In this document: positions 12,054 to 63,831 of the stretch, in pieces
Layout: every line of letters begins with the position of its first letter
Position numbering within the stretch: the stretch's first letter is position 1
NCBI GenBank assembly: GCA_000004985.1
Contig: GG738891.1
From: Naegleria gruberi
Taxonomy: Eukaryota
Length of the DNA: 64,000 nucleotides
Reading direction: 5' to 3' (one strand)
Position numbers and translations under genes: made by a program
Notes under the pieces: generated by a model
Told to the model about the DNA's origin: nothing
Databases searched by the model: none
What the model saw: only the letters and a program-made list of their open reading frames with translations

Positions 12054-12066
12054 TTTGGCGGCAAAA
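12054..12066. promoter_or_regulatory. Candidate E2F-type site TTTGGCGGCAAAA in the RFC4/LRR bidirectional promoter
   Basis: A GC-rich TTTSGCGS-like palindromic motif sits in an AT-rich spacer, 13-25 nt upstream of the RFC4 ATG (12041) and about 40 nt upstream of the LRR gene ATG (12104). Confidence 0.3.
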
Positions 12067-13909: not shown

Positions 13910-16627
13910 TTATTTCTTCTTTTCTGACTTTTCCTCAGAACCAGGAACAAGCTTGTAGGTATGGAGCTTGTCAAAAACGAGAGCAACTCTCTTTTTCAAC
14001 CTTGTTGTATCTGTTATCATTTCAATTTCTTGTTGAAGAGTTTTATCCTTAGGGTTCTTGGTTAAAACAGTGCTCAGCAATTGACCTAATCCGAAATCAA
14101 CTAACTCTTCCCAACCTGGTGATTCATCGTGCACATCAGAAACCCAGTGATTTTGTAAAACTTCCATTTCTTTGTCTTCCAAAGAAAGATTCAACTTCAT
14201 TAATAAATGCATTAATAAAGTTGCACAAGAAAGGTTTTGAGAAAGTTCTTTCAGATTGGTTTGAGTCTTTTCAATCTTCTTTGTTAGAGTCAGAATGTCA
14301 TCATAAGTCTTTTCAAACAAAATGTCCAAGCTATTGATTGAGGTTGGATTCTTATCCTTGTATCTGACCATTAAACGCCTTTGTATTGTTCTGAATTGAG
14401 CTGCCAGTTTGTCCAATTGCTCGTAATAAATTTGCAAACCAAGACGGTTCTTAAAGTGTTCGTCTATAATATCAAAGTATGGGTAGAATGGAAGATTTTC
14501 TGTACTTTCAATCTTAATTGGAGATTTATCATCTGACTGCAGGGCAACATTACAGGCCTTCAATCTTCTTGTTGTTTCTTTGGCGAGTAAATACATAGTT
14601 TCAAAATTGGCAGATTGAATTCTATATCTTCCTGCATTCTTTGATACTAAGAGAGTTGCATCTTTTCCATTAGCATATTGGAATGTTAAGATGTTTTCAC
14701 TCACTAAATTTTCAGTTTCAGTATCTCCCTGTGGTATCAAATCTTCAAACAATGTAGCAATTGGTATTGGGGATTTGTTAGTTTCTAAAGTGATTTTGTG
14801 AGTTGTAACTTTCTTAGCAGGAACAATATCTCCACACAATCCGAAAGGAAGCAAAAAGCTGCAGTTAGATACACGAGGCTGACCTGTTAAAGGATCATGG
14901 TAAATTGCACTAACAGAAGCCTCAAGAGTCTTTGGAGTGCATTCATTACCACCAAATACAGTTATTGGGAGAACATATGGTGTTCTTTGAGACCCAGCAT
15001 CTTGAAAGAGTAAGTTGCCTAATAATTTGAAAATACTTACTAAGGACACTAATGTAAGTGGTTGGTGCTATCACATAAAATGGTTTTTCCACACTCATAT
15101 TAATTGTAATATTTTCTAATTGGCATTCATCACCTGTAAAACCTATGTACAACTTGATGGTCACTCTCTTATTTTCAGTTCCAGTACTGAATGACTCAGG
15201 GTCAACACTAGTTGGTATTTGAGCTCTTATTACTAAACTTTCATTTGCTTCATCCTTTTGATTTCTCTTTGTTTTTCTTATGATTTGTTGAAGACGCTTG
15301 GTTTCTTCTTCCAAACGCTCATAATCAATATCTTTGTTTTCAAGAGTTGGAACAGAGTTCGAAATGGCTCCAGTACCAAGATAATTTAAAGCAAGGTTTC
15401 CTTCTTCATCCAAAGAAACAACCATACCCTTGATTCCATTAAAATTAGCAACTCTAATACTCACAGGGGAAGAATTGCACCCAGCTGCCCAAGCAAGCTT
15501 AGGATCAGAATAGATCATTATTGTCTTGTTGTGAGTTCCCAAAATCAAATTTTGTCTTTCAGCTTTGGATATAATTTAGATTTAATACCTATATGGTCAG
15601 TACTTACTAGGATCTGAGCTTGGTTTGTAGAGATCTACTGCACTAGGGAAATAGTCAAATCTCATTTGTGTCATTAATTCTCCATTTTCCTTGATACTGA
15701 ATAATGTTCGTTCTCCTATAACTAGAATTTCAGATTGACCTGCTGATAAATATTGACTATATCTTCCAACAAGAATGTCATAGACTTCTTCTCCAACATT
15801 TACAGTCCAATTTGCTTTTACCTTTTTTCCGTTTGTATTTTCTTTTTGATTCGATCCGGATGAGGCTGCCAACATTTGATATCTTTCAACATTAGACCAA
15901 TAATAAAACAGCCCTACTTACTTGTAAGCTTCAACTTCCATCGATGAATTAAATGTAACAAAACTGTCCATAGATTTGCTGTATGTTAATGGTCCAGGAA
16001 CTAAACTTGTTGACAAGAATCTTTGGAAAGTAAAGTGGTCTTGCTCAAAGAATGATAATTGGCCATCAAAAGATTGAATACAAATATAATCCTTTCCGAA
16101 AGCACCTCCAAAAGGGCCATAACAAAAGTTGTAAGATAATCTTTGAAGAGCATGTTCATAATACAAATGAAGTGTATAACCTTCCATAGAATTTGGATCT
16201 TGATCATTGCTTGAAACAAAAGACTCGGAGGCTTGTTTTACAATAGTATACACTGCAAACTTTTTAGGCATCAAAACACCAAGAGCATTATCCCTTGAAT
16301 TACTAGAATAAAATTCAAAGCTCAATCCTTGCCTCAACAACTCACAAAAACTTACGGAATAAATTTACCAATTTCAACTTGCAAAATTGGTGCTTCTAAT
16401 TGTTTTTCCAACAATAAATCAGTTGGATAAAAAGTGTTTTTCTGAGGTTTATAAATTCTGAGCATTCCAGATAAACTTCCTACAACAATTTTATCCAAAT
16501 AATTATCTTGACTAGAATTTGGGGGTCTCTCATTGTCTACATTTCCTATACAAAGAGAACCCTTATCAAATTCTTCATTCACTCCGCATTTAGTCGACCA
16601 CCATTCTCGAAGTTTAAAAAGGGACAT
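13910..16627 (-). CDS. BBS9: BBSome subunit BBS9/PTHB1 orthologue (5 exons)
   Basis: Exon1 16352-16627 MSLFKLREWWSTKCGVNEEFDKGSLCIGNVDN (human MSLFKARDWWSTILGDKEEFDQGCLCLANVDN). Exon2 15918-16340 (..YYEHALQRLSYNFCYGPFGGAFGKDYICIQSFDGQLSFFEQ..). Exon3 15597-15875. Exon4 about 15010-15548. Exon5 13913-about 15000 (..HKITLETNKSPI..). Collinear with human PTHB1 throughout. Stop at 13910-13912. Confidence 0.85.
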
Positions 16628-16821
16628 TTTTTTGTACTTGTATTGAGATTGTATATTTGAAAAAATTGGCGGGAAATTTTGTCTTTATGCCTCAAACCAA
16701 CCTTTTGAAAAGCTTGAAATTTTCATCATCCACAAAATTAATTACAATTCAATCATGTATTCATCATTGCAATTCTTCAATTATATGATAATGATAATTT
16801 ATTGTACAATAGTCACAAAAT

Positions 16822-19800
16822 TTAGTGGGTTTCCTCAGTTTGAGCAGTGGCAGCGCCAGGTTGTGTGGTTGGTTGTTGTGGTTCGACATATTCTTCGAAT
16901 TGGTGAGGTTCGAATGTCTTGACATAGGTAGTACGGATGAGTGGGTAAGGTAAAATTTCTTCAAAGAAACTGATATCCAAATGTTTGGATGTCTTGACAG
17001 TTCTATCAAGGAAAATGCAACAAGTATCGTATTGCTTTTCATAACCCTTAGTACCATTCATGTGGAGAAGAATCATGGCAGCAAACTCGGCGAATCTCTT
17101 GTAATCCTTTTCAAGTTCAGCAATCTTATTGGACTTGACACTGTGAACAGCTTGAATCAATCTGTGGAATGCAGTAATTGACAAGTGGGTATTGTTATAC
17201 CAACCTTCAAGATTGACATCATAGACGCTGTCCTTTTCTTTCCAAGTGGTATTGAGAATAGTGAGAGCAGCAAAGGCCAATGGTAAGACTTCCCAAACTT
17301 GAGATCTATCAACGAGTGGAGACAACTTCAATCTGAGAGGGTGATCAACATCAGAGAAACCACAATCAGTAGCCAAAGCGTCAATTGGAAGGAACTTGCC
17401 ATCACCATAATAATTTCTGGAATATTGTTCGTAAGCACTGTCAATGACATCATAAATAGCTGGGGCATTTCTTCTAACTGAAGATTGAAGAGCAGATTGT
17501 AAACATTGTCTGAATTCCAAAATACCACCAAGTTGAATGAGGAGTGGCATGAGTGTTTCGAGAGGAACAAGAGTTTGTCTGACCTTCTTATCCAAAACAA
17601 ACTTTTCATCATAGAGTTTGCTTTCAATATCCTTGAGGGCATTGTTGGCTTGGGACAAAACTTCTCTGATCTTTTCACTTCTTACATAAATTTCATCCAA
17701 CAAGGATTGATTCAAAGCTCTGAAACCATACGGACCAGTCAAGGTGATGAATGCCTTCAATTCATTGTAATCCAAGTAATTTTCAACATTGTAACTTTGA
17801 ATTGGAGTATTGGCAGTTGAGATGAAGGTTTGTCTGTTTGGATGGAAGAGAGTCTTATACTTTTGTGGATCTGAAACCAAATCAGTGAACCATTGTGAGT
17901 AGATTGAAATCAAGTTGGCTGGTTCTGTTGTTTGAACAACACCGAATGGTGAATCAACATAATTCAAATGCACAAAGTTATCCAAGAATGAGTTCAGAAC
18001 CAATTCTTCAGTATTGATATTGACACATTGTTCAATAATCTTTAAGGATGACATGAAAGAGTGTAATTCACTCAACAATTCTGATGGAGAAATGAACTTT
18101 GGAGTAAGAGCGTCATTCTTCATTTCCTTAGCTGTCAAATCAATAGTAGTGGCAATTCTCTTGATATACTCGGCAATGTATTCTTCGAGAACAGTTCTTA
18201 AGTATTCAACAGGGTAGAAAACATTGTCATACACAACGATTTCGTCGTATCTAGATAATGAGTACAACAATTGAGTGACATTTCTTTCCAAATCACGCAT
18301 ATCATTGATAGAATTATTTTCAAAGTGACTTTCGACACCTGGAACTGCTGGTTCTTCGATATATTGCTTGTTCTTACCATATCTACGGAGGATAGTTTGG
18401 GCAGCAACATCACCACCGATTTGATGAGTTAACATTCTGTAACCATGAGAACTGTTCAACAAATCAAGACCCTTTCTAATTCTGTCGACTAATTGTCCGA
18501 GCATTTGTTCAGCAAATTGAACTGATTGTTGACCAATTCTGTTTCTGAGGGATGGATTAAGTTGAGGGTGAATATTATCAGCATATGTGTTAAGAATTCT
18601 GATAAAAGCAGTCGAATACAAAGGTTGACTCTTTGAACCAATAAGACCTTCAGAGAAAATCTTATCAACATCAGCTCTGTAGAAGTACAATTGCTTGAGG
18701 GATCCCTTTTCGACCAATTCATCATATAAACCATCGACGTGCTTTGAGAATACAACAATCTTGGTCATGGTATTAAACAAGAGTGTCATTTCAGGCAATG
18801 TTTGTTTGAATTGATAACCGGACAGGAATGATTCAACTCTCTTCCAATTCAAACGCATGGCTTCAAAATCTTCACTATTTTGAATATCTGACATGATTGA
18901 TTCCATAATACCAGTAACTTTGGCAAGTTCAAGCTTGGCTTTATGTTCTTCGATCAATTGCCTGGCCTTATTATAATACAATCCACGAATAATCTTGAGA
19001 GAGTATTTTCTAATAACATCTCTGTGTTGCACACAAACGTACATCATTTCATCCATGAGGTAGATCATTTCACTAATCAAAGTTTCCTTAACTTCCTTGA
19101 ACTTCTTTTGAGCAGACTTTGGAACGTATCCATTGTGATGGAAATACCACATGATTTCATTTCTGGCCATTGAAATAGCAGCCAAAACCAAGTTGAATTT
19201 TGGTCCAAGCAAACCAGGTTGATCCTTCATCATGTTGAGCAAGGACTTTAATTGCAATCTGAGATAATTTCTCAATTCCTTGTGATAGTCATGACATTTT
19301 TCAGCAGCAATTTCTGCAAGTTCCTTCAATGATTTCTTTTCCTTTTTCAAATCTCCAAACTTTTTAATCATGACATATTCTTTGAAAGGATCGTGAATGT
19401 TGTAAACTTCATCACCGTAGAGTGGAATGACCAAGTTATTGGCCAAAACTCTTTGTAAGAGAATTTCATAACAACGAAGAGGAGCATCCTTGTCCTTCTT
19501 CTTGCTGACTACAACTGGTGTCATTCTTATTTGTTTTTCTGGGGCACGAGCAAGTGCATCAGGACAACAAGCATAAATAATAGCAACCCATTCTACGATA
19601 TCTTGATAACAATTCAAATACAAGTATGTTTCATCAACAGCAGGGAATGGAATTCTATCTGGTTCAGACAACATTTCCAAAGGTCTTTTAACATTCAAAC
19701 CACCAAAAGTACCTCTTTCAAATGCTGGAATGAGAGCAATGAGTGCTTTACCAATTTGATCTTGAATTGTGAACCATTTTTCTTGGAAACGAGGAATTGG

Positions 19801-20620
19801 ATCAGCAAAATCTTTAAACAATTGCCAAACTCGTTGAATGTTTGGTTCTGCTTGACCGTTCAATTTCAAATAACTCAAGTTTAACAAACAAACAATAAGT
19901 TCCTTGTCCTTAATTCTATTCAGCAACAAGATCAATTTCACATATCCAACCAACATTTGCAAATAATCATAACATGTTAAAAAGTTGACATCTTGTAAAA
20001 AATCAATATTGGCATTTGTAGACATTTCTAATATTGTTTGTTGAGCATGTTCTGTCCATTGTAACAATTCTTTAAATGTTAAATAAATTGGATGTACTTG
20101 ATTAAACAGTGTTGTCATGTTATTCAATGCCCAATCAAAGCCTTGAACCTTTTCCAATTCATCAATGGCAATATGTGGAGCATCTTTTAATAATTTAGCG
20201 AACATTTTCTTCATATCCACAGGAAGTGTGGACTTCATAATATCAGGTTTTAAATCATTATCACCAAGTTCATTCTTTATCGTATATAAACGTTGGAGGA
20301 GAGCCTCAGAATGTTGTTTTAAAACAAAAAGCTAAAATAGTTTTGTTTCGAATATATTTTGCATCAAGTAGTAGTGCAGGATAGCGTTTGATAAATAAAA
20401 ATTGAAGAGAGGAGGGATCATAGTTAGTATAAATTATTATGAATCAGAGAGTGATAAATCCATTCAATCCACACAGTGAAAAATAATTTTCATCATCATC
20501 ATTAGAATAATTAAAACGATTGTCGTTTAATACGAAATAAATTGTTGATCAACAATAGAATAATAATGTTAAAGAGGAGATGATGTGTTTGCTCTGCTTA
20601 CCTTCTCTGCTACCTTTGCC
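16822..20620 (-). CDS. NCKAP1: Nck-associated protein 1 (Nap1/Hem/NCKAP1), SCAR/WAVE complex subunit (2 exons)
   Basis: Exon1 20600-20620 MAKVAEK with donor GTAAGC. Intron 20341-20599 ends TTTTAG. Exon2 16822-20340 begins LFVLKQHSEALLQRLYTIKNELGD, matching human [30 protein letters not shown]. Internal matches include [30 protein letters not shown] (human [30 protein letters not shown]). About 1179 aa. Confidence 0.8.
20440..20505 (-). ncRNA. Candidate intronic box C/D snoRNA inside Nap1 intron 1 (speculative)
   Basis: The minus-strand intron contains AUGAUGAUGAUGA (box C UGAUGA) about 55 nt upstream of CUGA (box D). The intron (259 nt) is 3-5x longer than other introns in the window. No terminal stem or rRNA guide was verified. 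Confidence 0.2.
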
Positions 20621-20816: not shown

Positions 20817-20822
20817 AAAAAA
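20817..20822 (-). terminator. Pol III oligo-T terminator of the 5S rRNA gene
   Basis: AAAAAA on the plus strand (TTTTTT on the minus strand) lies immediately 3' of the 5S terminal helix. Confidence 0.6.
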
Positions 20823-20940
20823 GACTACAGCACCACAGGTTCCCAAGTTGTCTCCAACCTCAGTACTGATGTGGCTCGACGATGCTTAACTTCTCAAATC
20901 GGACGGGATGAGGTGCATGAATCGTGATATGGCCGTAGCC
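20823..20940 (-). rRNA. 5S ribosomal RNA gene
   Basis: The reverse complement reads GGCUACGGCCAUAUCACGAUUCAUGCACCUCAUCCCGUCCGAUUUGAGAAGUUAAGCAUCGUCGAGCCACAUCAGUACUGAGGUUGGAGACAACUUGGGAACCUGUGGUGCUGUAGUC. It is collinear with eukaryotic 5S rRNA (loop C AGUAC motif, GGGA..CC, terminal helix GGCUAC/GUAGUC). Length is 118 nt, followed by T6 on the transcribed strand. Confidence 0.92.
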
Positions 20941-30376: not shown

Positions 30377-31094
30377 CCTGATGTAGTTAAAACATTAGAT
30401 CATCTAAGAGAGGGACTTCCTCACCCCATCGTATTTTGCTTGCGCCAAATGAAGACTAAATAAGGACGAATTCAACTTACCACATCCAAAAGCGTGTCAA
30501 GTCTTGGAATGGTTAGAAAATTACATGAAATGGCAACCACAGCGTAGCACATCTAATCCTGTTTAAGACCATTGCCCCTATTGATGTATCCTTAAATTGT
30601 TACCGTTAACACTTGCCTTAATGAATCATATTCTGTAATCAACCAGTAAATGAAAATCAATGTATCAACATTAAAAGAAATCTAAAAATCTCAAGTGAAA
30701 GGAATTTCTCTCCTTCCAGATTCCAATTCCTTTGTTTTCCAAATTACATCACAACAATGCCAATAACGTTTATTCACCGTAATCCTAAGAATCATTATCA
30801 AATATCGGCAAAACAAACGAATAAAGAAAATCTACAACCTTAAGAATCCAAATTTTCGAGGTTTGTTTTAACTGTACCTTATTACTTAATTATTGAAAGT
30901 TCATTCGTTGATAACAAACACTTTCACTGGCGCTACTCACTACACCTTTGTTAATTGAATAACATGCTATATATAATCAATAGAACAACTTTTGATTTTA
31001 GTTGAAAACTGATTCTATGAAATCCTTGTCTTCCTTAATTTCACTATTTTTTTTGTTAAAATTTGTACTGGTTGAAATATTGTTGTAACAAGAT

Positions 31095-31106
31095 TGGCGC
31101 CAAAAA
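31095..31106. promoter_or_regulatory. Candidate E2F-type palindromic site TTGGCGCCAAAA upstream of the LMBR1-like gene
   Basis: A TTGGCGCCAA palindrome lies about 70 nt upstream of ATG 31177. Confidence 0.25.
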
Positions 31107-31176: not shown

Positions 31177-33444
31177 ATGAACGAACTGGTTGGGGCAACC
31201 GCTGCGTTACTCTATCCGATAACCCCAACAACAACGTCATCGGCCGGCAATGTTGCCCTGGATGATGATCATTATAATTTATTTTCGGAGAGTGTTAATT
31301 TTGTATTGATGAATATTTCAAATAATTCAACAAATGGAACAGTAACAGAAACACAACCAATCGATTTATTCTTTTCTTTGAGTTTGGGATTAACAGTTGT
31401 TTGTGGATTGTTGTTTTCTTATCTTATTTTGAGACATTATACAAAGCATTCACCATTATCTTGGTTTTTATACATCCCTCTCGTACTTACATTCTCTCTC
31501 CTTTTCACATCAGTTTGCATGGTCTGTATTGATTTGGCTGCTGCTAGGTCTGTTGATATGTCATCGGCTAAAACCGATGCCAATAGAGCACTAGAAATTG
31601 CTTGGCGTGTTATTTATTGGACCTGTTTCGTTTTGGCTCAGGTTTTACTCCCACTTTTCAAGGGATACCAATTTACAGGTGAATTTAAGGGCATCTTTAA
31701 ACTCTTGAAATCAATTGTTATGAATTTATTGACCATTTCTGTAATGTTAGGCATTGGTGTTGCTGGTTTAGCAGGATTTTTGATTTATATTGCGGTAGTG
31801 GATGATATCAAAAATGTGACATTTAACATGCTTCTTGGTTTGGCTCTTTCATTGTCCAACCTTGTAGGTCTGTCTCTATTGATTACTTTACTCGGATATG
31901 GTATTGTTGTGTTACCAAGAACATTGTGGGAAATCTCTAACGATCAAAGACAACTCAGAATGTATGAATTCAAAACTGTTGGACTCTTGGAAAACCTCAA
32001 CGATACTGAAGATGAAGTAATTGAACTCATTTCAGTTTGTAAGAAACTCCACAGTACTGTTCCTGAAAATCACAAGGAAAGAAAGAACGTACTCAGAATG
32101 ATGAAAACTGTTGATAAGGTCATTGAAGATCACCCTCAACTCCAAAATGCTAGACTCAGAGATAGATTTGAACCTGGATTACTTCCTGCAGTAGAAACGC
32201 TTACAAGATGGCAACTCGTAAACATTCACAAAAATCTTGTAAATGCTATTCTTGAATTTAGTATTAACCAATATCAATGGAAGCATTTGCAAATTCAAGC
32301 TTTCATACTTCAAGATATTGTCGATTCAAAGAGCAATGGTTCTAGAAAGATTGATTCCCCTTTCCGTAGATGGAGATTTTCATTTGTTCAAAAGATGCTC
32401 CAATTTCCTGAATGGTTATTCAGAAAGTTTATTAGACCTTGGTTCTTGAAGCTTGTTGCTGTTGTATACGTTCTCTTCTCCTTGATTCTCTTGTGGTGTC
32501 AATTTACTCCATTATTTAAGAATGTTACAACTGTTAAGCTTTCAGTTTTAGAAATGTTAATTTCATCAATTGGAGATCGTTTTGTTGTTCAATTTGTTGC
32601 TTTAGGTATTATTTCTGTTATTTTAGCAACAGTATTGGTAGCTTTATTTAATGTTAGAGTGATGGAATATTTCAGATTGATTCCAGGTCACACAGATTCT
32701 TACAGTTTGTTCTACACTGCTCAATTGCTGTGTAGAGTTATTCCTAGTATGATGTTTAACTTCTTGCAATTGATTGGTGTCAGTAAGAATGATGGTGTTG
32801 CCTACTTTAATATTTATGGTGAATTGAGAATGGATGGTTTACTTAAGTTTGGTGTTATTGGTGGTTTTATTGTCGATTACCTTCCATTAGGTATTTTCCT
32901 TGTTGTCTTTGTTGCAGCATTCAGAATTTTAGAAAGACTTGGAACATTGATCAACATTGAAAGATTCAAGTATTCAGGTACTGAAAAAGTTACAGATGAA
33001 AGAGTTTTAGAAGGCAGAGAAATCTTGGCTCGTGTCAGAGAAAGAAAGCTTAAACATATTGAAAAAGCTAAAGAAGAAAATAGAGATGGAAGCTTTAGTA
33101 TTACAAAACTCTTTGACAAGTTGGATGAACATGATGTTGGATCTGGATCTTCAAAGAAGAAGTCATCCAAACGTAAACAAAATGAAGACGATGATGACTC
33201 AGATACCATCAAATTTAGTGACAAGTTTTTGGAAGATATTGATCAATTTGCTGAAAAACCATCAGAAAGACACTACCAAAGTGGTAGTAAGAAGGAAAAG
33301 AGTAAGCCAAGAGGTTTCTCTAGAATGGATGACGAAGAAGTCAGTATGGATGATGATATACCACTTAATAGTTATCGTCCTCATGATGATCTTATCAATA
33401 AGATCAGATCCAACAGAAGTAAGAAGTTTGAATCAGTTTTGTAA
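31177..33444 (+). CDS. LMBR1-like multi-pass membrane protein
   Basis: Single 755-aa ORF with real ATG. N-terminal TM block, central cytoplasmic loop and C-terminal TM block. KGYQFTGEFKGIFKLLKSIVMNLLTISVMLGIGVAGLAGFLIY parallels human LMBR1L ESEGFAGSRKGVLGRVYETVVMLMLLTLLVLGMVWVASAIV. Charged C-terminal tail. Confidence 0.6.
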   Translation: MNELVGATAALLYPITPTTTSSAGNVALDDDHYNLFSESVNFVLMNISNNSTNGTVTETQPIDLFFSLSLGLTVVCGLLFSYLILRHYTKHSPLSWFLYIPLVLTFSLLFTSVCMVCIDLAAARSVDMSSAKTDANRALEIAWRVIYWTCFVLAQVLLPLFKGYQFTGEFKGIFKLLKSIVMNLLTISVMLGIGVAGLAGFLIYIAVVDDIKNVTFNMLLGLALSLSNLVGLSLLITLLGYGIVVLPRTLWEISNDQRQLRMYEFKTVGLLENLNDTEDEVIELISVCKKLHSTVPENHKERKNVLRMMKTVDKVIEDHPQLQNARLRDRFEPGLLPAVETLTRWQLVNIHKNLVNAILEFSINQYQWKHLQIQAFILQDIVDSKSNGSRKIDSPFRRWRFSFVQKMLQFPEWLFRKFIRPWFLKLVAVVYVLFSLILLWCQFTPLFKNVTTVKLSVLEMLISSIGDRFVVQFVALGIISVILATVLVALFNVRVMEYFRLIPGHTDSYSLFYTAQLLCRVIPSMMFNFLQLIGVSKNDGVAYFNIYGELRMDGLLKFGVIGGFIVDYLPLGIFLVVFVAAFRILERLGTLINIERFKYSGTEKVTDERVLEGREILARVRERKLKHIEKAKEENRDGSFSITKLFDKLDEHDVGSGSSKKKSSKRKQNEDDDDSDTIKFSDKFLEDIDQFAEKPSERHYQSGSKKEKSKPRGFSRMDDEEVSMDDDIPLNSYRPHDDLINKIRSNRSKKFESVL

Positions 33445-50846: not shown

Positions 50847-53243
50847 TTATCGAAGCCAACCCTTGCAGTTCTTACTACCACAAAGACATTTAACTCTTTT
50901 CTCTACAATATACTCATAATCAAATGTAAGTTCCTCTCCTTCTTTGATGTCTCGTTTGCAAAAGAATGCAATGTCACCATATCTTGGATCTCTGATCTCA
51001 TTGCACACTAATAATTGCTTTAAATTACCATCACAAGAATGGTTTAAAAATCTAGTGACGTTACCTATGAAGGTTGAATCAATTGTGTATTCACATTGAA
51101 CACCTCCATGAGCAAGATCAAATAAATAACTTAGGCCTTTTCTATCATATCTTTCACCTCTCTTCTCAGCAATAGCATCTGTAATAAGCTCTCCAAAGTA
51201 GACCTCTACGAATTGTCCTTTTGAGAGCTTTTGATTAGCTCTTAAACCCCAACCTCTATTCTTAGTTTTAAAAACACATAATTTAACATTACTTCCTTTT
51301 TGCACAACCCTGTTGGGACAAGTTTCAGAGCACCCACAATCTCTATTGCACTCTAAAATTACATATTTTGTATCAATATCTCTTAACTTTCCACTGTTGT
51401 CGTAGTAAACTTCATCACCTCTTCTAACAGGATTGAATTGACTTGGATCAAATATGTCTGTTCTGAATTCTTGTTGAAGTCTGAGACATTTACAACCCTT
51501 TCCACACTTATTTTTACAATCACATGCTTCAGAGTTTTTAAGAGCTGCCATTACTTCTCTTTGGTCTTCTGTGATTCCTTCACCGTACGTGTTACTTGTT
51601 GCATAAGCAAATGGCTCAAATTCAGAAAAATCAACTGCATTTACAACAGGTACGGCTGTCCTAGATTTACCAAGAGAAATATCATCAAAGTAGTAGAAAT
51701 GAGGAGATCCTTTCTTTTTTCCTAACAGCTCTGGTAAGGTTTCACCATTAATAGTCTTACTAACCATAGATCTTATATAATTAAAGTGCCTACGAATAAA
51801 TCTCTTCTTATGGTTGATCAAGTCATCAATTTTGTTGCAGGGATCACTAGGGTCCCTGTTTAAATCATCGTCGTCGTCTTCGCCCTCACTGTCACTTACA
51901 GTTATTTTACCCTTATTTGAAAGGAATGACTTGGAGTAAGGATATGCTGATACAGTCTTAGAAATGGCCTTGTCAATCAGCTTGTCAACGTTTTCTAGTG
52001 CTTGGTTCAAAATATTTAAATCCATGGTTTCTTCAACATGGAAATTGTTGAACTCTTTCCAATTTAAAGACTTTTCCAAATCACATGCATGTCTCTTTTT
52101 TGACTTGATATACTTTTTAATAACCTCTGGATCTCTTCCAAATGAAAGACACACAACGGTCAACCAGTGGACAGGCAGTCTGTCAAATACTTCATTTTTG
52201 GACAGCTCATCCAAAACATCCTTTTCTCGTTGAATGAGGTGTGTAGACTTTACAAGGGAACTAAATATTATCCATCTAGTATCCGTTATCACACCGATCA
52301 TTTGCGATTTAAAATTATCATAAACAATTTGAGAAACATTTTCAACTTCAATTATGCCTTGTAAAAATGAATTCAGATAAGACATGATTTGGTCGTGAAG
52401 GGCATGCTTTTGATAGTCGTCCACAACCTCCAAAGCAATTTCACAAGGAGAAGTCATAGAGTCAACTTGAATTGTTCTTTCATCATTTTCCCAATGTGTA
52501 ATTGACATGTTTTTCTCTGTAGGTATTCTATACTTCATTCTGAAACCAAAATCACACCTGCTCTCTGTTATAAGAACAGGATTATTTGTGAAATACCCAA
52601 TGACTGCAAAGTATTTTTGACCATCATTTCTAGGAGTACAACTTCCAAGATAGATTCCTTTAAATTCCTCAATGTAAACCTCACACAAATATTCAGTAGG
52701 ATTAAATTTGTGAATTTGTTCCTTTAGTTGAAGTTTAAATCCAGAGTCACCTTCCCACTCAAACATTTCATGAATCATTTCTTTTTTAATTTCAAAGACC
52801 TCTGAGCTTGCATCTGCACAAATGTCATAAACAGATGGAGGAATACTATTGTCCACTATAATAATATTCATAAAACTAATCATTTCCAAATACTTTTCCT
52901 TGATTTTCATTTGTAAAGGAGGAGAAATCTTGTTGTTATTACATCGGAACCCATGTCTTGTTAGCCACTCAATCGCACCAGACTTGGTAGAAAAGTTTCT
53001 ACCGCTCATGTGTTCGATCTGACTCCACAGTACGTCAATAGAAATAGCATCACCCTCCAACACTTGTAGAATAAATTTTAAAAAAGATAAAAAGTCTGGG
53101 GAATATTGAATTTTCTGTAATGCTCCACAAACATTTATATCAAATGTTGTTCGGATTGTTTTTTGCTTTTTTGTTTTAGAACCTGTTACCACAACATCAG
53201 AATCATCATCCGAACCTGATGATTGTTTGTTCCGTTTAGACAT
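50847..53243 (-). CDS. SET-domain histone-lysine N-methyltransferase, SUV39/G9a/Clr4-like (pre-SET, SET, post-SET)
   Basis: Real ATG at 53243. Pre-SET Cys cluster (CDCKNKCGKGCKCL..CNRDCGCSETCPNRVVQKG). SET (RGWGLRANQKLSKGQFVEVYFGELI..NVTRFLNHSCDGNL..GEELTFDY). Post-SET CLCGSKNCKGWLR. About 500-aa N-terminal region of unknown function. Confidence 0.85.
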   Translation of the reverse strand: MSKRNKQSSGSDDDSDVVVTGSKTKKQKTIRTTFDINVCGALQKIQYSPDFLSFLKFILQVLEGDAISIDVLWSQIEHMSGRNFSTKSGAIEWLTRHGFRCNNNKISPPLQMKIKEKYLEMISFMNIIIVDNSIPPSVYDICADASSEVFEIKKEMIHEMFEWEGDSGFKLQLKEQIHKFNPTEYLCEVYIEEFKGIYLGSCTPRNDGQKYFAVIGYFTNNPVLITESRCDFGFRMKYRIPTEKNMSITHWENDERTIQVDSMTSPCEIALEVVDDYQKHALHDQIMSYLNSFLQGIIEVENVSQIVYDNFKSQMIGVITDTRWIIFSSLVKSTHLIQREKDVLDELSKNEVFDRLPVHWLTVVCLSFGRDPEVIKKYIKSKKRHACDLEKSLNWKEFNNFHVEETMDLNILNQALENVDKLIDKAISKTVSAYPYSKSFLSNKGKITVSDSEGEDDDDDLNRDPSDPCNKIDDLINHKKRFIRRHFNYIRSMVSKTINGETLPELLGKKKGSPHFYYFDDISLGKSRTAVPVVNAVDFSEFEPFAYATSNTYGEGITEDQREVMAALKNSEACDCKNKCGKGCKCLRLQQEFRTDIFDPSQFNPVRRGDEVYYDNSGKLRDIDTKYVILECNRDCGCSETCPNRVVQKGSNVKLCVFKTKNRGWGLRANQKLSKGQFVEVYFGELITDAIAEKRGERYDRKGLSYLFDLAHGGVQCEYTIDSTFIGNVTRFLNHSCDGNLKQLLVCNEIRDPRYGDIAFFCKRDIKEGEELTFDYEYIVEKRVKCLCGSKNCKGWLR

Positions 53244-53277: not shown

Positions 53278-53288
53278 TTGGCGGGAAT
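53278..53288. promoter_or_regulatory. Candidate E2F-type site TTTGGCGGGAA (minus strand TTCCCGCCAAA) upstream of the SET methyltransferase gene
   Basis: It matches the E2F core GGCGGGAA/TTCCCGCC and lies 35-45 nt upstream of the SET gene ATG (53243) in a very AT-rich spacer. Confidence 0.3.
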
Positions 53289-55626: not shown

Positions 55627-57795
55627 TTATTTCAAGAAGTTTTTATTGATTTCTGTAGCTATTTTAACCATTTCAATCTTTGAGTTATGTCTTCTATCGA
55701 CAGGAAGTGATTTCTGTTGAACGAATCTAATAGCTATATTTGTAAATAATTTTGGAGCATTTGGAAGAACTTGTTTTCTCCAAAAATCTTCCATATCTGA
55801 AATGCTAATACTCTCATTACCAAATGTCTCAAATACAATTGCAATTTCCTTAAATACCAATTCATTATATTTAGATGTGAAATTCTTTTCATTCATCTTA
55901 AGTTGTACGCTATCATTTCCACTGATTGGTGAATATCCTACACAAGCACATCTTCTAATATTTGAATACTTGTTGTAAAAGGCGTGTTCAATACAAGGTG
56001 GAGCTATCATGTGTTTTCTTTCATTTTCCAATGCAATATGGAACATGTGGCTCAATCTTCCACAATACCAAAGCATTTTGTTCTCGTCCATGTAGCCAAT
56101 ATCTCCTGTTTTGTGGTAAAGAATTCCATTTATCATCTCCTTACTTGTCTTCATTGCATTGTCGTCAAGCTCATATCTTGGACTAATGGCAGATCCACCA
56201 ACCCAAATTTCACCAATATTGGATGTTGAAACATATTCTTGATTTCTAATCAAAATTGTAATGTTTGGACATTCCTTGCCAACACAATATCCCTTTGTAA
56301 TACTGTATATTTCGCTATCTGATGTGTAAATATTATCCAACTCATATGTATTAGTCAAACAAATGGGTAACCCCTCAGTAGCTCCATAAGTTGGGAAAAT
56401 TGCTGGCTCACTTGATTCTTTTGAGGCCCATTTTCTTAATTTTTGATGAAGTGAATAAGGAGCTACAGAACCGCCACATAACAATACCTCCAGCGGTGGA
56501 GAGATAGTATTCTCTTCTTTGATTGACCCAGCAGCTTCATTCATTTTCTTGCAATAATCAATTACTTCCATCCATACAATAGGAGAGCAAAATCCCATTC
56601 TTGGATAAAATACATTCAAGGCGTTGATGTAGTGCTTGGAGTTAACACTAGCTGGGCTTGCCAAATTAAAAGGTGGAACAATTGCTGTCAATCCCATACA
56701 GTTTACACATAAAGTCATTACTGTGTTGTGATTGATTACTCTGTCTTGTCTTCCTTTTATGAGATATGGCCTCATTAATTCGTTAAAGCTATATATTTGA
56801 TTCTTTAACATTCCGTGAGTAATGTGAACAAGCTTTGGAATACCTGTAGTTCCAGTTGTATTGACAATAACTACAGTTTCGTCATCATCAAATTGGTAGA
56901 GATTTTCATCATTTTCCTCTGGTTCAATTTGTAGCTTTTCAACATTAACAATTTTTGTAATTTTCTTCCATTCTGGACGATTCTTGCTCAGTAAATTGAA
57001 AGCTCTATCAGAAGGTGTAAATAGCAAAACCTTTTTAGCAATATTGAGGAATTGTCTCTTTTTGAACAAGCTTGCGGCTTGAATCACTAAATAAATAAGT
57101 GGTGAAACAATTACAGCGTCAATATTCAATTTAGGAATCCACTCAAGGAAACTATCAATTCCACATTCATTAGGGTTCAATACAAGAATTTCTTGACCAG
57201 TTTGAATCAATGAAAATACCAATGGAACAAGTTGAATATCGTTTGGATCAACTAGAATAATGACTCTATTTTTGTTCTTATCCTTCAATTCATTTCCAAT
57301 AACTCTATTATAAAATCTAATTGATTTTCTAACTTGATGAAAGGTCATTGAATTGTTTGTATCATTAATTTTGTAAAGATAATCAGCTGGATATAAATTG
57401 ATTTTTCCAAGAGCAAAAAATATCAAAAAAGGTGTAAATAATAATGCCTTTTGATAACCTTCCAAATAATAAAACAGTAAAATGAAAATAGTCCACCCAG
57501 TCAAATAATAAATAAATTTGTTAAATTTAACATTAGTTGGATAATGAAGAGCAGGTACTTCTGGATCTTTTTCCGCAACTTGTTCAAATAATTTTCCTAA
57601 AACATTATTAGGTTTGATTTTTTGTTTAGATCGATCTCTTGGTGGAGGAAGAGGTGGTTGTTGAGCAATATTTTCTTGATCACTATCAATTGAAATTGTT
57701 GATTGTTCATAGCTTGCATCTTCTTCATCGGAAAATTCAATTAAAGCTTCTTTTGTTTTACCAGAGGAAGCAATGCCTTCTCTTGAAATTGGCAT
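55627..57795 (-). CDS. AMP-dependent synthetase/ligase (acyl-CoA synthetase-like adenylate-forming enzyme) with N-terminal membrane segment
   Basis: Real ATG at 57795. AMP-binding motif NTTGTTGIPKLVHITH (TSGTTGxPKGV), YGATEG, GEIWVGGSAISPRYELD, and a late conserved Lys region. Hydrophobic N-terminal segment FIYYLTGWTIFILLFYYL. Stop at 55627-55629. Confidence 0.8.
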   Translation of the reverse strand: MPISREGIASSGKTKEALIEFSDEEDASYEQSTISIDSDQENIAQQPPLPPPRDRSKQKIKPNNVLGKLFEQVAEKDPEVPALHYPTNVKFNKFIYYLTGWTIFILLFYYLEGYQKALLFTPFLIFFALGKINLYPADYLYKINDTNNSMTFHQVRKSIRFYNRVIGNELKDKNKNRVIILVDPNDIQLVPLVFSLIQTGQEILVLNPNECGIDSFLEWIPKLNIDAVIVSPLIYLVIQAASLFKKRQFLNIAKKVLLFTPSDRAFNLLSKNRPEWKKITKIVNVEKLQIEPEENDENLYQFDDDETVVIVNTTGTTGIPKLVHITHGMLKNQIYSFNELMRPYLIKGRQDRVINHNTVMTLCVNCMGLTAIVPPFNLASPASVNSKHYINALNVFYPRMGFCSPIVWMEVIDYCKKMNEAAGSIKEENTISPPLEVLLCGGSVAPYSLHQKLRKWASKESSEPAIFPTYGATEGLPICLTNTYELDNIYTSDSEIYSITKGYCVGKECPNITILIRNQEYVSTSNIGEIWVGGSAISPRYELDDNAMKTSKEMINGILYHKTGDIGYMDENKMLWYCGRLSHMFHIALENERKHMIAPPCIEHAFYNKYSNIRRCACVGYSPISGNDSVQLKMNEKNFTSKYNELVFKEIAIVFETFGNESISISDMEDFWRKQVLPNAPKLFTNIAIRFVQQKSLPVDRRHNSKIEMVKIATEINKNFLK

Positions 57796-57964: not shown

Positions 57965-59680
57965 TTATTGATCGTTTTGACCGTGTTCAACCAAAACTTT
58001 GACAGCTTCCTTAATCTTTTGATTGAGAGCATCAGTAGATTCAATCAATGTCAAAATATCAGAAACTTCCATATCCAAGAGCATACCAGTAATCTTTGGT
58101 GCATTCTTTGGTTCTCTCAAGTGAACGAGTGGGAAAAGTCTTTCACCCAACAATTGCTTTTGATCTTGTTCGCTAAGCTTAGCCAAGTATTCAGCAGTCA
58201 ATTGATCGGATGGAGCTTGTGTAGTTTGAGCTTCTTGAGTGTTTGGAGTAGTTTGTTGTGGTTGTTCTCTTGGTTGATTACGAGCATTGTTGTTGTATTT
58301 AATACGACCAGCATTCTTGGCAGTATTAGCATTACCACCACGAGCACCTCTTTGTGATGAACCACCACGAGACATACCACCACGGTTTTGGTTGGATTGA
58401 CGACCACCAGCAACTGGTTGCCAACGTGGCTTAATTTGACTTCCTGGAGGTGGGAAAGCACCTTGAGCAGGAATGAAGAATTGTGGCATCATTTGTGGGA
58501 TCATTTGTGGTTGTTTTCTAGCATTGTATTGAGCCTCGAGTTGTGAACGACGGAGTTCCTTTGGTTGAGCAAAGTTAACGTAAAGTGGTTTAGATCCAAT
58601 CATGTGACCAGACATTTCAGTCAAAGCCTTGTTGGCAGCTTCTGGAGTCTTGAAACAGACGAAACCAAATCCTCTACTTTGCTTGTTATCAGACATAACT
58701 TTAGCAGATGTAATATCACCAAACTTAGAGAATTCTTGTCTCAATCTTTCATCATCAACAGAATCATCCAAATTTTTAACATAGAGATTCAAACCCTTAT
58801 ATTTGTTAACCTTTTCTTGCTTCAATTTTTGGAAATATTCCTTCAATTTAGCTCTTCTTTCGTTCTTCTTTTGTGCTCTTCCAACAAACAACTTCTTATT
58901 TTTGAAATCCTTTTCATTCATCTCATCAATAGCGATAAGTGCTGAAGCGTGATCAGCAAAGTTAATAAAACCGAATTCCTTTGAAGCGCCGTTTTCTCCT
59001 CTCATAACGACAGCATTTTGAATTTCTCCAAACTTTGAGAAAACTTCTGAGAGTTCCTTTTCATCAACAGATGCATCAAGGTTCTTAACATAAATATTGG
59101 TGAATGAATCTTCATTGCTCAAAATCTTCAAACGTTCGGTCTTCTTTACAAATGGTCCAACGAAAACTTGTTTACCGTTTAACAACATTCCGTTAATTTT
59201 AGCAATAGCCTTTTCAGCAGCTTCTTGTGTTTCAAAGTGAACAAAACCATAGCCAGCTGATTCGACGTTATCGCCACCATTATCACCCTTCTTTGTTGCT
59301 TGACAAACCTTACAGGACAAAATGTTACCAAAGGCAGAGAATGTATCATAAAGAGCCTTGTTATCAATTGATTTATCCAAGTTCTTGATGAAGATATTTC
59401 CAATACCACTTTTACGAATTGATGGATCTCTTTGTGACCACATAATACGGATTGGAATACCCTTTACACTAGCATAATTCAAGGTATCGAGAGCTCTCTC
59501 GGCATCTTGTGGATTTTGGAAATTTACATAAGCATATCCAAGAGATTTACGAGTCATAGCATCTCTGCAGATACGGATGGAAATAATTGGACCAACTTCA
59601 TGGAAAAGGTCAAACAAGAGAGCTTCAGAAATTTCTTCGTGCAAGTCTCCGACGTAAAGAGAAGCAGAACTATAGTTCAT
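57965..59680 (-). CDS. PAB1: Cytoplasmic poly(A)-binding protein (4 RRMs and C-terminal MLLE/PABC domain)
   Basis: Real ATG at 59680. SLYVGDLHEEISEALLFDLF, RNP1 motifs KSLGYAYVNF, KGYGFVHF, KEFGFINF and SRGFGFVCF. C-terminal LTAEYLAKLSEQDQKQLLGERLFPLVH (MLLE). Confidence 0.95.
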   Translation of the reverse strand: MNYSSASLYVGDLHEEISEALLFDLFHEVGPIISIRICRDAMTRKSLGYAYVNFQNPQDAERALDTLNYASVKGIPIRIMWSQRDPSIRKSGIGNIFIKNLDKSIDNKALYDTFSAFGNILSCKVCQATKKGDNGGDNVESAGYGFVHFETQEAAEKAIAKINGMLLNGKQVFVGPFVKKTERLKILSNEDSFTNIYVKNLDASVDEKELSEVFSKFGEIQNAVVMRGENGASKEFGFINFADHASALIAIDEMNEKDFKNKKLFVGRAQKKNERRAKLKEYFQKLKQEKVNKYKGLNLYVKNLDDSVDDERLRQEFSKFGDITSAKVMSDNKQSRGFGFVCFKTPEAANKALTEMSGHMIGSKPLYVNFAQPKELRRSQLEAQYNARKQPQMIPQMMPQFFIPAQGAFPPPGSQIKPRWQPVAGGRQSNQNRGGMSRGGSSQRGARGGNANTAKNAGRIKYNNNARNQPREQPQQTTPNTQEAQTTQAPSDQLTAEYLAKLSEQDQKQLLGERLFPLVHLREPKNAPKITGMLLDMEVSDILTLIESTDALNQKIKEAVKVLVEHGQNDQ

Positions 59681-60133: not shown

Positions 60134-61261
60134 ATGGGCAATTCCTCATCATCAAAGTCGTCAATATCAACCTCTCTATTTAATGAAGCGGATGAAGAGG
60201 AATACGAGGAAGAACATGAGGAAGTAAAAGAAAGACCAAGAAGATGGTTGTTGGATTCTAGTTTTGAAGAAGATAATGCCATCACAGAAAGTGAAATTAA
60301 ATCGGGTGGAGGAGAGGAAACTTTCCATGCTTTGTTACAGAACGAGGAAATAATATCACGAATCTTGATGATGTATTGTATAGATTTGTTGGATAATCTA
60401 CTGACCTTGAGATTAGTGAATCGATCTTTTATGAAAATTGTTGATCAATTTAATTTTATTTCATTTCATGTATTTGAAAATGCGTCAATCGAATATGTTG
60501 TTGATGATGAAGATGTAAAACAACAACAATTAACATGTAAGCGAATGAGACTTGTTAGGAAAATTCTTGAAAATATAACTAGCAATAAGAGGCAAGATCT
60601 ACCATGCTTTTTATCAAACATCAGTAATAAGAGAGATTTATTATTTACATTTAATTTAAAGGAACGAGAGAATATTACAAAAATTTCAAATCCTTTTTTA
60701 CAAATTTCAAAATACTTGAGTACTGGAAAGATGGATCAATATTTTCTAATTCCTTCTATTGAAATTTATTTGGAAATTAATCAATCATCTGTTCCTGTTC
60801 ACTTTAACATGCTTTTAATATCAGAGGAAACATCAAGTTTTGAAGAATATTTATTTAGATATTCCATTTCAATATCAGAGGAAGATGAATGGGAGACTAA
60901 GGTTTTTCCAATGCATAAGAGACAATTCTTTTCGAGTCCAAAGAATAATGCTCATCAAGTTCAACCAATAATTAATCGATCCAATAATAGTATTAATAAT
61001 ACGCAGAAAATCAAAAACAGAGGAAAATACAAGATTGTATTTTCATTTTCCAATAATTTTCAATTACACATTTCAACAATAGATATTCAACATAATTACT
61101 CCAAAAGCATAGATATAGTTCCTCTATTATCGGAGGATTATCAGAACAAACAATTGGCAACAATTCAAAATTTGATTAGAGATGTGAAAATTTCATGTTC
61201 CTCATCTGATTTGAACATTTGCAAGAGGGTTTCTTTCAAAACAAGTTTTGGCATTTCCTGA
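60134..61261 (+). CDS. F-box-like protein with N-terminal MGNSSS (N-myristoylation-type) motif
   Basis: Real ATG. MGNSSSSKSS. Acidic stretch. F-box-like EEIISRILMMYCIDLLDNLLTLRLVNRSFMKIVDQ. Remainder unrecognised. Confidence 0.5.
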   Translation: MGNSSSSKSSISTSLFNEADEEEYEEEHEEVKERPRRWLLDSSFEEDNAITESEIKSGGGEETFHALLQNEEIISRILMMYCIDLLDNLLTLRLVNRSFMKIVDQFNFISFHVFENASIEYVVDDEDVKQQQLTCKRMRLVRKILENITSNKRQDLPCFLSNISNKRDLLFTFNLKERENITKISNPFLQISKYLSTGKMDQYFLIPSIEIYLEINQSSVPVHFNMLLISEETSSFEEYLFRYSISISEEDEWETKVFPMHKRQFFSSPKNNAHQVQPIINRSNNSINNTQKIKNRGKYKIVFSFSNNFQLHISTIDIQHNYSKSIDIVPLLSEDYQNKQLATIQNLIRDVKISCSSSDLNICKRVSFKTSFGIS

Positions 61262-61483
61262 GGAATATCAGATTATTACAGGTTAACTTGTCCTATTTTC
61301 AATAAAAGCTTTCAAAGTTGTTTGTTCTTATGATAATTTATTAACAGGGTAAATTAAACTCACAGAATATCATTTTAAATTTAGCGCCATTTTTGCTTCC
61401 CGCCATTAAAAAATGAAAAATACTCTCGTTACAAGATTTAATAGCTTAACGAACAATGACTTGCCGCTCAGATTTGCTGGTGG

Positions 61484-63831
61484 ATGATGGGAACAATTTC
61501 CCTCCCAAGTTGTTTGGCGCCTCTCACCACTATGAAACAATCATTTAATAAAAAACAAATGAACAACACCACGACCACAAACCTGCTGACGACAAGCAAC
61601 ACTCCTGCTACAGCAAATAGAAGTGAAGGAGTACAACAAATGAATACTTGTGGCCGAAGCAATACATCATCAACAATGCCAAGCAATATTCAACATGAAT
61701 ATACTATTGCTTCATCTCAAGTGCCAAATAATTATTCACGGGAATATACTTTTCTGAAAAACAATTCTAGGAGCAACTCTTCTGCACAGGAAATTAGTTC
61801 TTCTATTCAAGGACCATTCTCTGAAACAATGTCAATTAAAACTGAGAAGATAGCAGCTGGGATATCAGAAAGAGCAAATGTTTCTCCATTTTCTGAAAGT
61901 AAGCCAATAATTGCTTCTTCATGTATTGAAACATTTACAAATCCATACCATACTCCTTTACTGGGTACGCAATCAATGATCGAGCCTTGTGTACCAATAA
62001 GAAAGCTTCCAAACCTTACCATAAATGTAAACAATAATAGTAGCACTGCTGTCCTTGCATCAGCTGGTTCACATTCTGCTAAACCAAATCAAACTTCACC
62101 TCCTCCACCTTCCAATTTTCCAACAATTCCATTACTTCCAGCCAATTTCACAACAACTACCACTTTAAGTAGTGGTACTTGCACATCAGTGCTTGGCAAC
62201 TGTGGACCAATTCCATTTTCCTTTTCAAAGCCAACTAGTTCATTTGCAGAATTAGGAGAAATCATTTCTCAAGGTAACTTTGGAATACCTAATTCCTCAA
62301 CCTATTGTAATGATACCATTAGTTGCAATTCTACTACTAGCTCTACTTTTGAAGAACCTAAGAAAGTCAAGAATAGAAAAGAAAAATCACTCACCATGAT
62401 TTGCAGCAAGTTTATCCAATACTATGAAGAAAAGGCTAATAGCCCAACAACTAGCGCTCAATCAAAGGGTGACATTAAGATTGAAGAAGCTGTTAACACA
62501 CTAGGTATTGAAAAGAGAAGAATTTATGATATTTTAAATGTCCTCGAAAGTATTTCTATTGTAACAAAAGTTGGTGTTTCATGCTATAAATTCAATGGAA
62601 CAAAGTGCCTCAACGCTACTCTTGAACAAATGAAAAACAGTGCTTTCGTAGATCCACTCCTTTTTGAAGGTATTCAATCACTCCCAAAAAATCCACAAAA
62701 CGAACCAATTATTAAGAGTTTATCAAAGTTTAAACAATCATCTATGACTCATACTTCAAGATCGAACACATTGACATCATTGAGCAGGCTCTTGATTATG
62801 TGTTTCTTGGCAACTGAAGTTAAAGAAATTACACAAGATCAACTTTTGGCCATTGTGCTAAAAGATTCTACCGAAAAGAGTAAGTTGTCAAAGAAATTTT
62901 ATTCTAATTATGATAATTAATAGCGAGAACAAGAAGATTAAATGATATTGTAAACATTTTATCTGCCATTCACTTACTTGAAAAGAAAACTGAAAAGAGT
63001 GTTAATGTTTTCAAGTGGCTTGGTGGATCTTACGCAAATGAAAACAAACCAGTCAGTTCTATCATATCTCCTTCTAAAATGCCTCTGAAAAAGAGAAAGA
63101 GAGTTAAGGCTGGATCACAAGGATCAGATAACGAAACATCTCCATTAACCATTGAAGGTGGTCCTTCTTTTTCTATTGTTGATATACCACAACCTGAAAA
63201 TTCAAAGAACGAAATTTCTGAAATTAGTCCAGTGCCAATCTCTACAGTTTCTCCATCATTTTTCCAAAGCAGTACAACCACTTGTAAAACTCCAACATCT
63301 AGTGGTAGCAACAGCAGTGGTGGTCTTCATTTTCAATTCAGATCGCCACCAAGTAAGAAGAATAAGACCATTCCACTTTCTTCATTCACAACTGTTTTGG
63401 GAGGCGCACCAAAGATTTCTCCAAAGAACTTGAATGAAATCTTCAAGTCAAGCGAGCAACCAATTACGAATAATTCAAATATTCCTGTCCAAAGCCCAAC
63501 CATTCCAAATGCTGGTATTACCACAACATTTGGTAAATTGGGCTCTGGAAGCATTTTTTCACAAACTTCTGGTCAAGTTTCACCTCGAGTAATGCCTTCA
63601 GCTATTAAGGCAACCATTTTCAACGAAAATAATAAGGAAAATGTCTGTAAGCCAACAGTTTCTCAAACTACAAAGAAACCATTATCACCTAACGACAATG
63701 CACAACAAGGTAAAATCACTTTCAAGATTCGTGGTACCAATGAAACAACTTTAGCTCCAAGACAACCACTTGGTCTTAAAACAGACAATGGCGTTAATAA
63801 TCAACAAAATATTAAATCTCCAAGACCTTAA
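61484..63831 (+). CDS. Atypical E2F (E2F7/8- or DEL-like) transcription factor with two tandem E2F winged-helix DNA-binding domains (at least 2 exons)
   Basis: DBD1 in exon1: KSLTMICSKFIQYY..IEEAVNTLGIEKRRIYDILNVLESISIVTKV..YKFNG. DBD2 is split by an intron (donor GTAAGT at 62889, acceptor AATTAATAG at about 62932): SLSRLLIMCFL..EITQDQLLAIVLKDSTEK / TRTRRLNDIVNILSAIHLLEKKTEKSVNVFKWLGG. Compare human E2F8 KIRRLYDIANVLSSLDLIKKV..KPAFKWTG. Basic KKRKRVK follows. Ser/Thr/Pro-rich C-terminus to TAA 63829-63831. Confidence 0.75.

Follow-up and report, generated by a model that had tools for sequence, protein, structure and literature searches.

A two-exon gene of Naegleria gruberi very probably encodes an atypical E2F of the E2F7/E2F8/DEL class

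Atypical E2F proteins have been defined by two E2F-TDP domains and by a similarity to E2F7 that exceeds that to E2F4 or DP1 (Cao et al., 2010; PMC3224931), and the sub-families E2F1-6, DP and E2F7/8 have been described across the major groups of eukaryotes including Excavata (Medina et al., 2016, eLife 5:e09492; PMC4862756). Figure 2 source data 2 of the latter survey contains a sequence called "NgruDEL", placed in the DEL/E2F7-8 sub-family, and its source files also list NgruE2F, NgruDP and (file 6) NgruRB (PMC4862756). In human E2F8 the linker next to the first DNA-binding domain (DBD1) holds two short helices (Morgunova et al., 2015; PDB 4YO2; PMC4686757), the arm S112-R113-K114...S117 reads a narrow A/T minor groove, and Tyr316 of the RRxYD motif makes a contact to the DNA backbone (PMC4686757). 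Here we analysed 64,000 nucleotides (nt) of Naegleria gruberi DNA (contig GG738891.1, assembly GCA_000004985.1; this whole stretch, with a G+C content of 33.6%, is called the window), near the end of which two open reading frames (ORFs) are listed on the plus strand at 61484..62920 (ORF1, 478 aa) and 63079..63831 (ORF2, 250 aa). With a probability of roughly 0.88, the locus is a single N. gruberi gene in two exons for an atypical E2F of the E2F7/E2F8/DEL class. Gene, intron and class assignment are already known, having been published in 2016: in a string comparison the spliced protein equals NgruDEL over all 742 residues, from Met-26 of the ORF (nt 61559) to the stop and including the junction DSTEK/TRTRRL, and the two differ solely in the start codon, the mechanical ORF opening 75 nt upstream at 61484. 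The value of the gene as a cell-cycle marker, which had been proposed from the sequence alone, is thus limited, as it has stood in a pan-eukaryote E2F survey since then. What is confirmed is a heterolobosean amoeba with the full E2F/DP/DEL/RB toolkit, in keeping with the published conclusion that the three E2F sub-families date to the last eukaryotic common ancestor.

The two ORFs are joined by the removal of one spliceosomal intron (62880..62923, plus strand). It is 44 nt long, lies in phase 1 and reads GTAAGTTGTCAAAGAAATTTTATTCTAATTATGATAATTAATAG (GTAAGT...TAATAG), beginning with GTAAGTTGTC and ending with TAATTAATAG in the DNA reading, and the stop of ORF1 is an in-frame TAA inside it (62918-62920). 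Exon 1 (61559..62879, plus strand, from the likely start) encodes an S/T/N-rich N-terminal region, DBD1, a linker and the N-terminal half of the second DNA-binding domain (DBD2), and its last bases are GAT TCT ACC GAA AAG A. Exon 2 (62924..63831, plus strand) opens with CG AGA ACA AGA AGA TTA AAT GAT ATT and encodes the C-terminal half of DBD2 (to 63024) and an S/P/T-rich tail up to the stop TAA at 63829-63831; its landmarks are TRRLND at 62929-62946 and FKWLGG at 63010-63027. Excision of the 44 nt gives an open coding sequence of 2304 nt or 767 aa, counted from the first ATG, and the junction of the spliced product is ...LKDSTEK/TRTRRLNDIVNILSAIHLLEKKTEKSVNVFKWLGG... The sequence-only reading had correctly described both ORFs, the split of the gene between them and a GTAAGT..AG intron, and had set the junction at 62889/62932, which is about 10 nt off on each side: the actual junction joins 62879 to 62924, and there is no GT at 62890.

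The closest proteins found were all from Naegleria, among them P0001, an ORF call from ENA that is 97% identical to the query. Orthologues with the same domain order, intron site, RRLND motif, C-terminal islands and upstream blocks exist in N. fowleri (FDP41_006453, P0002, 840 aa; best BLASTP local alignment 48% identical over 65% of the query) and N. lovaniensis (C9374_009929, P0003, 818 aa; 60% over 46%); their N-terminal regions are largely unalignable to that of N. gruberi. At both loci the single intron compatible with the annotated protein occupies the identical phase-1 position after GAAAAGA, again with GTAAGT..AG borders (53 nt in N. fowleri, L001 5472-5524; 50 nt in N. lovaniensis, L002 5382-5431). 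Among the three species the exon flanks are kept and the intron interiors have diverged, and the two annotated sister proteins show the same junction ...DSTEK/TRTRRLNDIVNIL, read as DS(T/A)EKTRTRRLNDIVNIL. As exon flanks and intron site are conserved, the annotated orthologues are joined and the published model matches exactly, the comparison supports 61484..62920 and 63079..63831 as two exons of one gene.

If the ORFs were two separate genes, the first would encode an E2F with one DBD that stops at the TAA at 62918-62920, and the second an unrelated S/P-rich protein whose start is at 63079. Exactly these two products come out of the mechanical ORF call, and prokaryote-style gene callers gave such truncated proteins in other Naegleria assemblies (P0001, P0008). 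ORF1, however, would then break off midway through a winged helix, leaving a half without any score on the E2F_TDP profile (PF02319), while the half with the recognition helix (62924-63024) would lie outside ORF2 and in a frame different from that of ORF1. Position and phase of the GTAAGT..AG intron are moreover conserved in three species although its sequence and length vary (44, 50 and 53 nt), and the exons are joined in the eukaryotic annotations of three species. P0004, P0007 and P0008, which are ORF calls from other Naegleria assemblies or metagenomic data, are read-through translations of the same intron, and a search of contigs found no gene encoding a product equal to ORF1. We regard two separate genes as extremely improbable; the pair of seemingly unrelated ORFs arises from ORF calling that ignores introns. 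The practical use of the locus is that of an annotation check, since a prokaryote-style ORF track splits the gene and halves DBD2. Another case of such fragmentation in the window is the multi-exon gene for the BBSome subunit PTHB1/BBS9 (13910-16627, minus strand), which the ORF track splits into at least five pieces and whose first exon opens with MSLFKLREWWST at 16627.

That the single gene encodes two tandem DNA-binding domains is seen with Pfam: the spliced protein matches PF02319 with 101.4 bits (E 2.2e-29) in two stretches, whereas ORF1 alone matches with 68.7 bits in one (aa 299-372). DBD1, an E2F-like winged helix, is encoded at 62372..62599 (plus strand, aa 297-372), covers positions 1-65 of the 65 in the profile and was aligned to DBD1 of E2F8; it carries the N-terminal arm NRKEKSL (62372-62392, plus strand) and the recognition motif KRRIYD (62513-62530, plus strand). 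The N-terminal half of DBD2 is encoded in exon 1 at 62762..62879 (plus strand; aa 427-465 plus the first base of codon 466). Unspliced, this half gives no PF02319 match, and the half in exon 2 scores 27.7 bits on profile positions 37-65, while the spliced DBD2 alone reaches 41.5 bits (cut-off 25.7) on positions 2-65 of 65. DBD2 is thus complete only after splicing, and the intron cuts it just ahead of the recognition helix. These results bear out what had been read from the letters, namely two tandem E2F-type winged helices, a second one closed by the hallmark RRL.DI.N.L..I.L..K......F.W.G (found at nt 62932-63024), and an intron that separates its recognition helix and wing from its N-terminal half; the PF02319 matches number two once the intron is removed, not one. 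RRxYD in both DBDs is a conserved hallmark of E2F/DP domains without being a formal criterion. In the Naegleria protein DBD1 has RRIYD, and DBD2 keeps Arg-Arg and Asp with the Tyr replaced by Asn. No other Pfam family passed its threshold in a search at E<=1, in which only sub-threshold winged-helix look-alikes appeared and neither a coiled-coil/marked-box nor a DP dimerisation domain was found.

Placement among the E2F sub-families follows from several comparisons. The protein has two PF02319 domains and resembles E2F8 more than E2F4 or DP in the PDB: when the DBD module was compared with all PDB sequences (phmmer), human E2F8 (4yo2_A) was the best match with 71.9 bits (E 5.3e-19) and both DBDs aligned, E2F4 (1cf7_A) scored 27.5 bits (E 2e-5), and no DP chain was found at E<=1. 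On average the Naegleria DBD1 shares 38% of its residues with atypical DBD1s and 33% with typical E2Fs, and DBD2 33% with atypical DBD2s and 21% with DPs. For a tree of single domains, individual DBDs were taken from the sequences in the eLife files, search matches and PDB alignments and then aligned (neighbour-joining, 82 columns, Poisson distances, 500 bootstraps). Naegleria DBD1 falls within the clade of atypical DBD1s (75% bootstrap), typical E2Fs form a separate clade (89%), DPs another (75%), and Naegleria DBD2 lies within a clade of DBD2s and DPs (64%). The proposed likeness to E2F7/8 and DEL is supported by this phylogenetic comparison and by E2F8 as the best PDB match by sequence and the only significant one by fold. 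A profile built from seven atypical E2Fs, including the Naegleria protein, retrieved 3342 proteins at E<=1e-10, the best being plant E2FE/DEL1 with 99% coverage; it contained two rice sequences, and grasses dominate the top of its list. When the 205-aa DBD module was used by itself in a word-indexed search for homologues, only two Naegleria fragments came back.

Could the protein instead belong to the typical E2Fs, as an activator dependent on DP, or to the DPs, and carry a degenerate second winged helix? Its DBD1 is still 33% identical to typical E2Fs, and its DBD2 is without the Tyr of RRxYD. Yet DBD2 matches the full PF02319 profile above the cut-off, the coiled-coil/marked-box that accompanies a single E2F_TDP domain in E2F1-6 and the dimerisation domain that accompanies one E2F_TDP domain in DP are both absent at E<=1, DBD1 lies outside the clade of typical E2Fs, and E2F8 is nearest in sequence and fold across both domains. 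N. gruberi also has separate canonical E2F and DP genes. We consider such a protein very unlikely. As in the atypical class, regions for DP dimerisation, pocket binding and transactivation are lacking at the level of Pfam (E<=1); a short pocket-binding motif could still have escaped such a sequence-based test.

The atypical E2F assignment is also consistent with a predicted structure. In an AlphaFold model of the orthologue from N. lovaniensis, only residues 290-497 are predicted with confidence (pLDDT about 80-95); there, two linker helices stand between one winged helix and the next. Nearly all of the rest falls under a pLDDT of 50, the exception being a predicted C-terminal helix. Foldseek against the PDB returned a single significant match, again E2F8 (4yo2_A; E 1.4e-6, probability 1.00); the alignment has 205 columns, extends over both domains and gives a TM-score of 0.68 (normalised to the target). 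In this prediction the two DBDs pack as an intramolecular pseudo-heterodimer like that of E2F and DP, and the folded part would be confined to one module of about 200 residues, with long S/T/N/P-rich regions on either side that are predicted to be disordered.

In detail, the Naegleria protein shares with human E2F8 and E2F7 the tandem of an E2F-like and a DP-like winged helix, the two short helices after DBD1, the minor-groove arm (S/N)RK(E)KS, RRIYD in DBD1 and the lack of a DP-binding or pocket-binding region. It differs from them in that identity is about 30%, DBD2 has RRLND and not RRLYD, the DBD2 wing is shorter and without the SRKP insert of plant DEL DBD2s, and the flanking tails are unrelated; the spacing between DBD1 and DBD2 is about 54 residues (aa 372 to 427), whereas a linker of 82 residues is reported for E2F8. 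Plant DEL1/E2Fe, DEL2/E2Fd and DEL3/E2Ff have the same two-DBD architecture at 25-33% identity, but their C-terminal block DWESLA..FRPQY... is absent from the Naegleria protein, which has much longer tails. Canonical NgruE2F and NgruDP share the PF02319 fold and an RRxYD-type recognition helix, but each has a single DBD, and they belong to the clades of typical E2Fs and DPs.

Several points weigh against the reading as a single gene for an E2F7/E2F8/DEL protein that acts like its animal and plant relatives. The monophyly of atypical DBD2s including that of Naegleria is weak in the tree (23% bootstrap). RRLND in DBD2 is found in all Naegleria orthologues seen, while E2F8, plant DELs and DPs have RR(L/V)YD; because the Tyr that contacts the backbone in E2F8 is Asn here, the affinity or geometry of DBD2 on DNA, on the DP-like side, may be weaker or different. 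The structural model, computed from an alignment of 24 sequences, is that of P0003 and not of the N. gruberi protein. Splice junction and start codon rest on comparative evidence. Finally, the literature searched held no functional work on Naegleria E2Fs or on repression in heteroloboseans.

Domain architecture, intron, orthology and fold similarity are what the analysis shows; DNA specificity, independence from DP and repression are what we infer. The canonical E2F-site motif is TTTCCCGCCAAA. By homology with E2F8, DBD1 would take the place of E2F and DBD2 that of DP, the two packing within one chain so as to mimic the E2F-DP heterodimer, and a single TTTSSCGC-type E2F site would be bound with no DP partner needed. 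The arm N-R-K-E-K-S in front of DBD1, which corresponds in the alignment to S112-R113-K114...S117 of E2F8, would read the narrow A/T minor groove as the E2F8 arm does. The protein would be devoid of a marked-box/dimerisation region and of a recognisable pocket-binding or transactivation region, and since it lacks these it would occupy E2F sites and oppose NgruE2F/NgruDP. Most likely it would compete with this canonical activator and damp the transcription of E2F targets; as NgruE2F, NgruDP and NgruRB are listed for the organism, the canonical partners to antagonise exist. Its role as a repressor would thereby be carried over from animals and plants.

A true DEL-class protein with a different job, i.e., with altered specificity or as an activator or chromatin recruiter in place of a simple competitive repressor, is a reading that the Tyr-to-Asn change in DBD2 and the Naegleria-specific tails would allow. 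RRLND is fixed, the tails hold invariant motifs of their own such as GGLHFQFRSPPSKKNK, and one study reports both stimulatory and repressive targets for animal E2F7 (PMC4856960). The base-contacting Arg-Arg, the Asp of the motif and the minor-groove arm of DBD1 are nevertheless kept, the predicted arrangement of the two domains matches E2F8, and the sequence has no resemblance to a known activation domain in Pfam. On balance we judge a different job unlikely and a competitive repressor the better description.

The tail encoded by exon 2 is S/P/T-rich and, among four Naegleria orthologues, poorly conserved apart from four islands (all plus strand). The first is the basic motif SPSKMPLKKRKR (63067..63102), SPSKMP(L/I)KKRKR in the four proteins, which includes SPSK, a minimal consensus for cyclin-dependent kinases, and by its composition resembles a putative nuclear-localisation signal. 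The second, GGLHFQFRSPPSKKNK (63319..63366), comprises 16 invariant residues, and the fourth is a conserved ITFKIR island at 63715-63732, (I/F)T(F/I/V)KIR. Between them an invariant KEN motif (63634..63642) lies within E-x-NKEN. This motif is a candidate APC/C-Cdh1 degron because animal E2F7/8 are described as substrates of APC/C-Cdh1 (PMC6792010).

At the other end of the gene the start codon has to be considered together with the upstream sequence. In-frame ATGs 5' of 61559 exist at 61484, 61487 and 61532. In N. fowleri and N. lovaniensis the sequence aligned to 61497-61558 is non-coding and precedes the annotated start codon. Translation therefore probably begins at 61559, the ATG of the published model, or perhaps at 61532, and not at 61484; the product would have about 742 aa from 61559, as against 767 aa from the first ATG, and the mechanical ORF probably begins 75 nt too far upstream. 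This aligned stretch is the second of two conserved upstream blocks. It holds TTTGGCGC(C), with TTTGGCGC aligned 5' of the annotated starts in both sister species, and contains a proximal E2F-like site, TTGGCGCC (61514..61521, plus strand), 38 nt 5' of the ATG at 61559. This site, although inside the mechanical ORF, would probably lie in the promoter or the 5' untranslated region. The first block (61397-61449), which reads TTCCCGCC ... CTCGTTACAA ... ATTTAAATA and is conserved in the three Naegleria species, opens with a distal E2F-like site, TTCCCGCC (61397..61404, plus strand), 155 nt from the ATG at 61559; its counterparts are L002 3770-3817 in N. lovaniensis (TTCCCGCC) and L001 3797-3843 in N. 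fowleri (CTCCCGCC). At the two sister loci the strict 8-mer TTSSCGCS is found only in the distal site of N. lovaniensis, the other conserved sites matching the 7-mer TTSSCGC only or being one base off TTCCCGCC.

In the window TTSSCGCS, an element that resembles the E2F consensus, occurs 7 times against 0.89 expected, a number reached in 0 of 100 shuffles. The elements are flanked by A/T runs and all lie outside gene models, 61514 alone being inside a mechanical ORF. Besides the two at the DEL gene, they stand in front of a leucine-rich repeat (LRR) protein (12057-12064, 40 nt from ATG 12104), of PTHB1/BBS9 (16668-16675, reading TTTCCCGCCAATTTTTT, 41 nt from ATG 16627, minus strand), of an LMBR1-like gene (31094/31096, i.e., 31094-31103, 74 nt from ATG 31177) and of a Pre-SET/SET gene (53280-53287, 37 nt from ATG 53243, minus strand). 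Three other genes of the window thus share with the proximal DEL site a spacing of 37-41 nt to the ATG. TTSSCGCS may be a proximal promoter element with a fixed position in N. gruberi, and the recurrence of about 40 nt gives a second argument for the ATG at 61559. An E2F regulon is not claimed and is at most a lead, as the site-bearing genes (LRR, BBS9, LMBR1-like, SET) are not classical S-phase genes.

In animals (E2F1 to E2F7/8) and in plants (E2Fb/c to DEL1) a negative-feedback loop is known in which E2F controls the genes of its own antagonists. From the upstream sites it is conceivable, as a tentative lead and not a result, that the Naegleria DEL gene is itself under E2F control in such an E2F-DEL loop. 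If true, E2F-DEL feedback would also be present in Discoba and would thus probably go back to the last eukaryotic common ancestor, and the conserved C-terminal KEN motif would add turnover by APC/C-Cdh1 to the ancestral circuit. The conserved promoter sites, the Tyr-to-Asn change in DBD2 and the KEN motif are cheap leads for work on cell-cycle transcription in Naegleria.

Directly 5' of the DEL gene lies an ORF of 375 aa (60134-61261, plus strand) that has no Pfam match, and in N. fowleri and N. lovaniensis a gene equally without Pfam match (502 and 506 aa) occupies the same position. Further genes of the window identified by Pfam are those for a poly(A)-binding protein with four RRM and one MLLE domain (57965-59680, minus strand), an AMP-binding enzyme (55627-57795, minus strand), the Pre-SET/SET methyltransferase (50847-53243, minus strand), the LMBR1-like membrane protein (31177-33444, plus strand) and Nck-associated protein 1 (Nckap1; 16822-20238, minus strand, 1055 bits). 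N. fowleri too has a gene like that for the poly(A)-binding protein (RRM and MLLE) in the neighbourhood of DEL (L001 8800-10530), but it lies on the opposite side and has the reverse orientation. No tRNA was found in the window; its sole Rfam match is a full-length 5S rRNA gene (20822-20940, minus strand; RF00001, 100.3 bits), which lies amid protein-coding genes.

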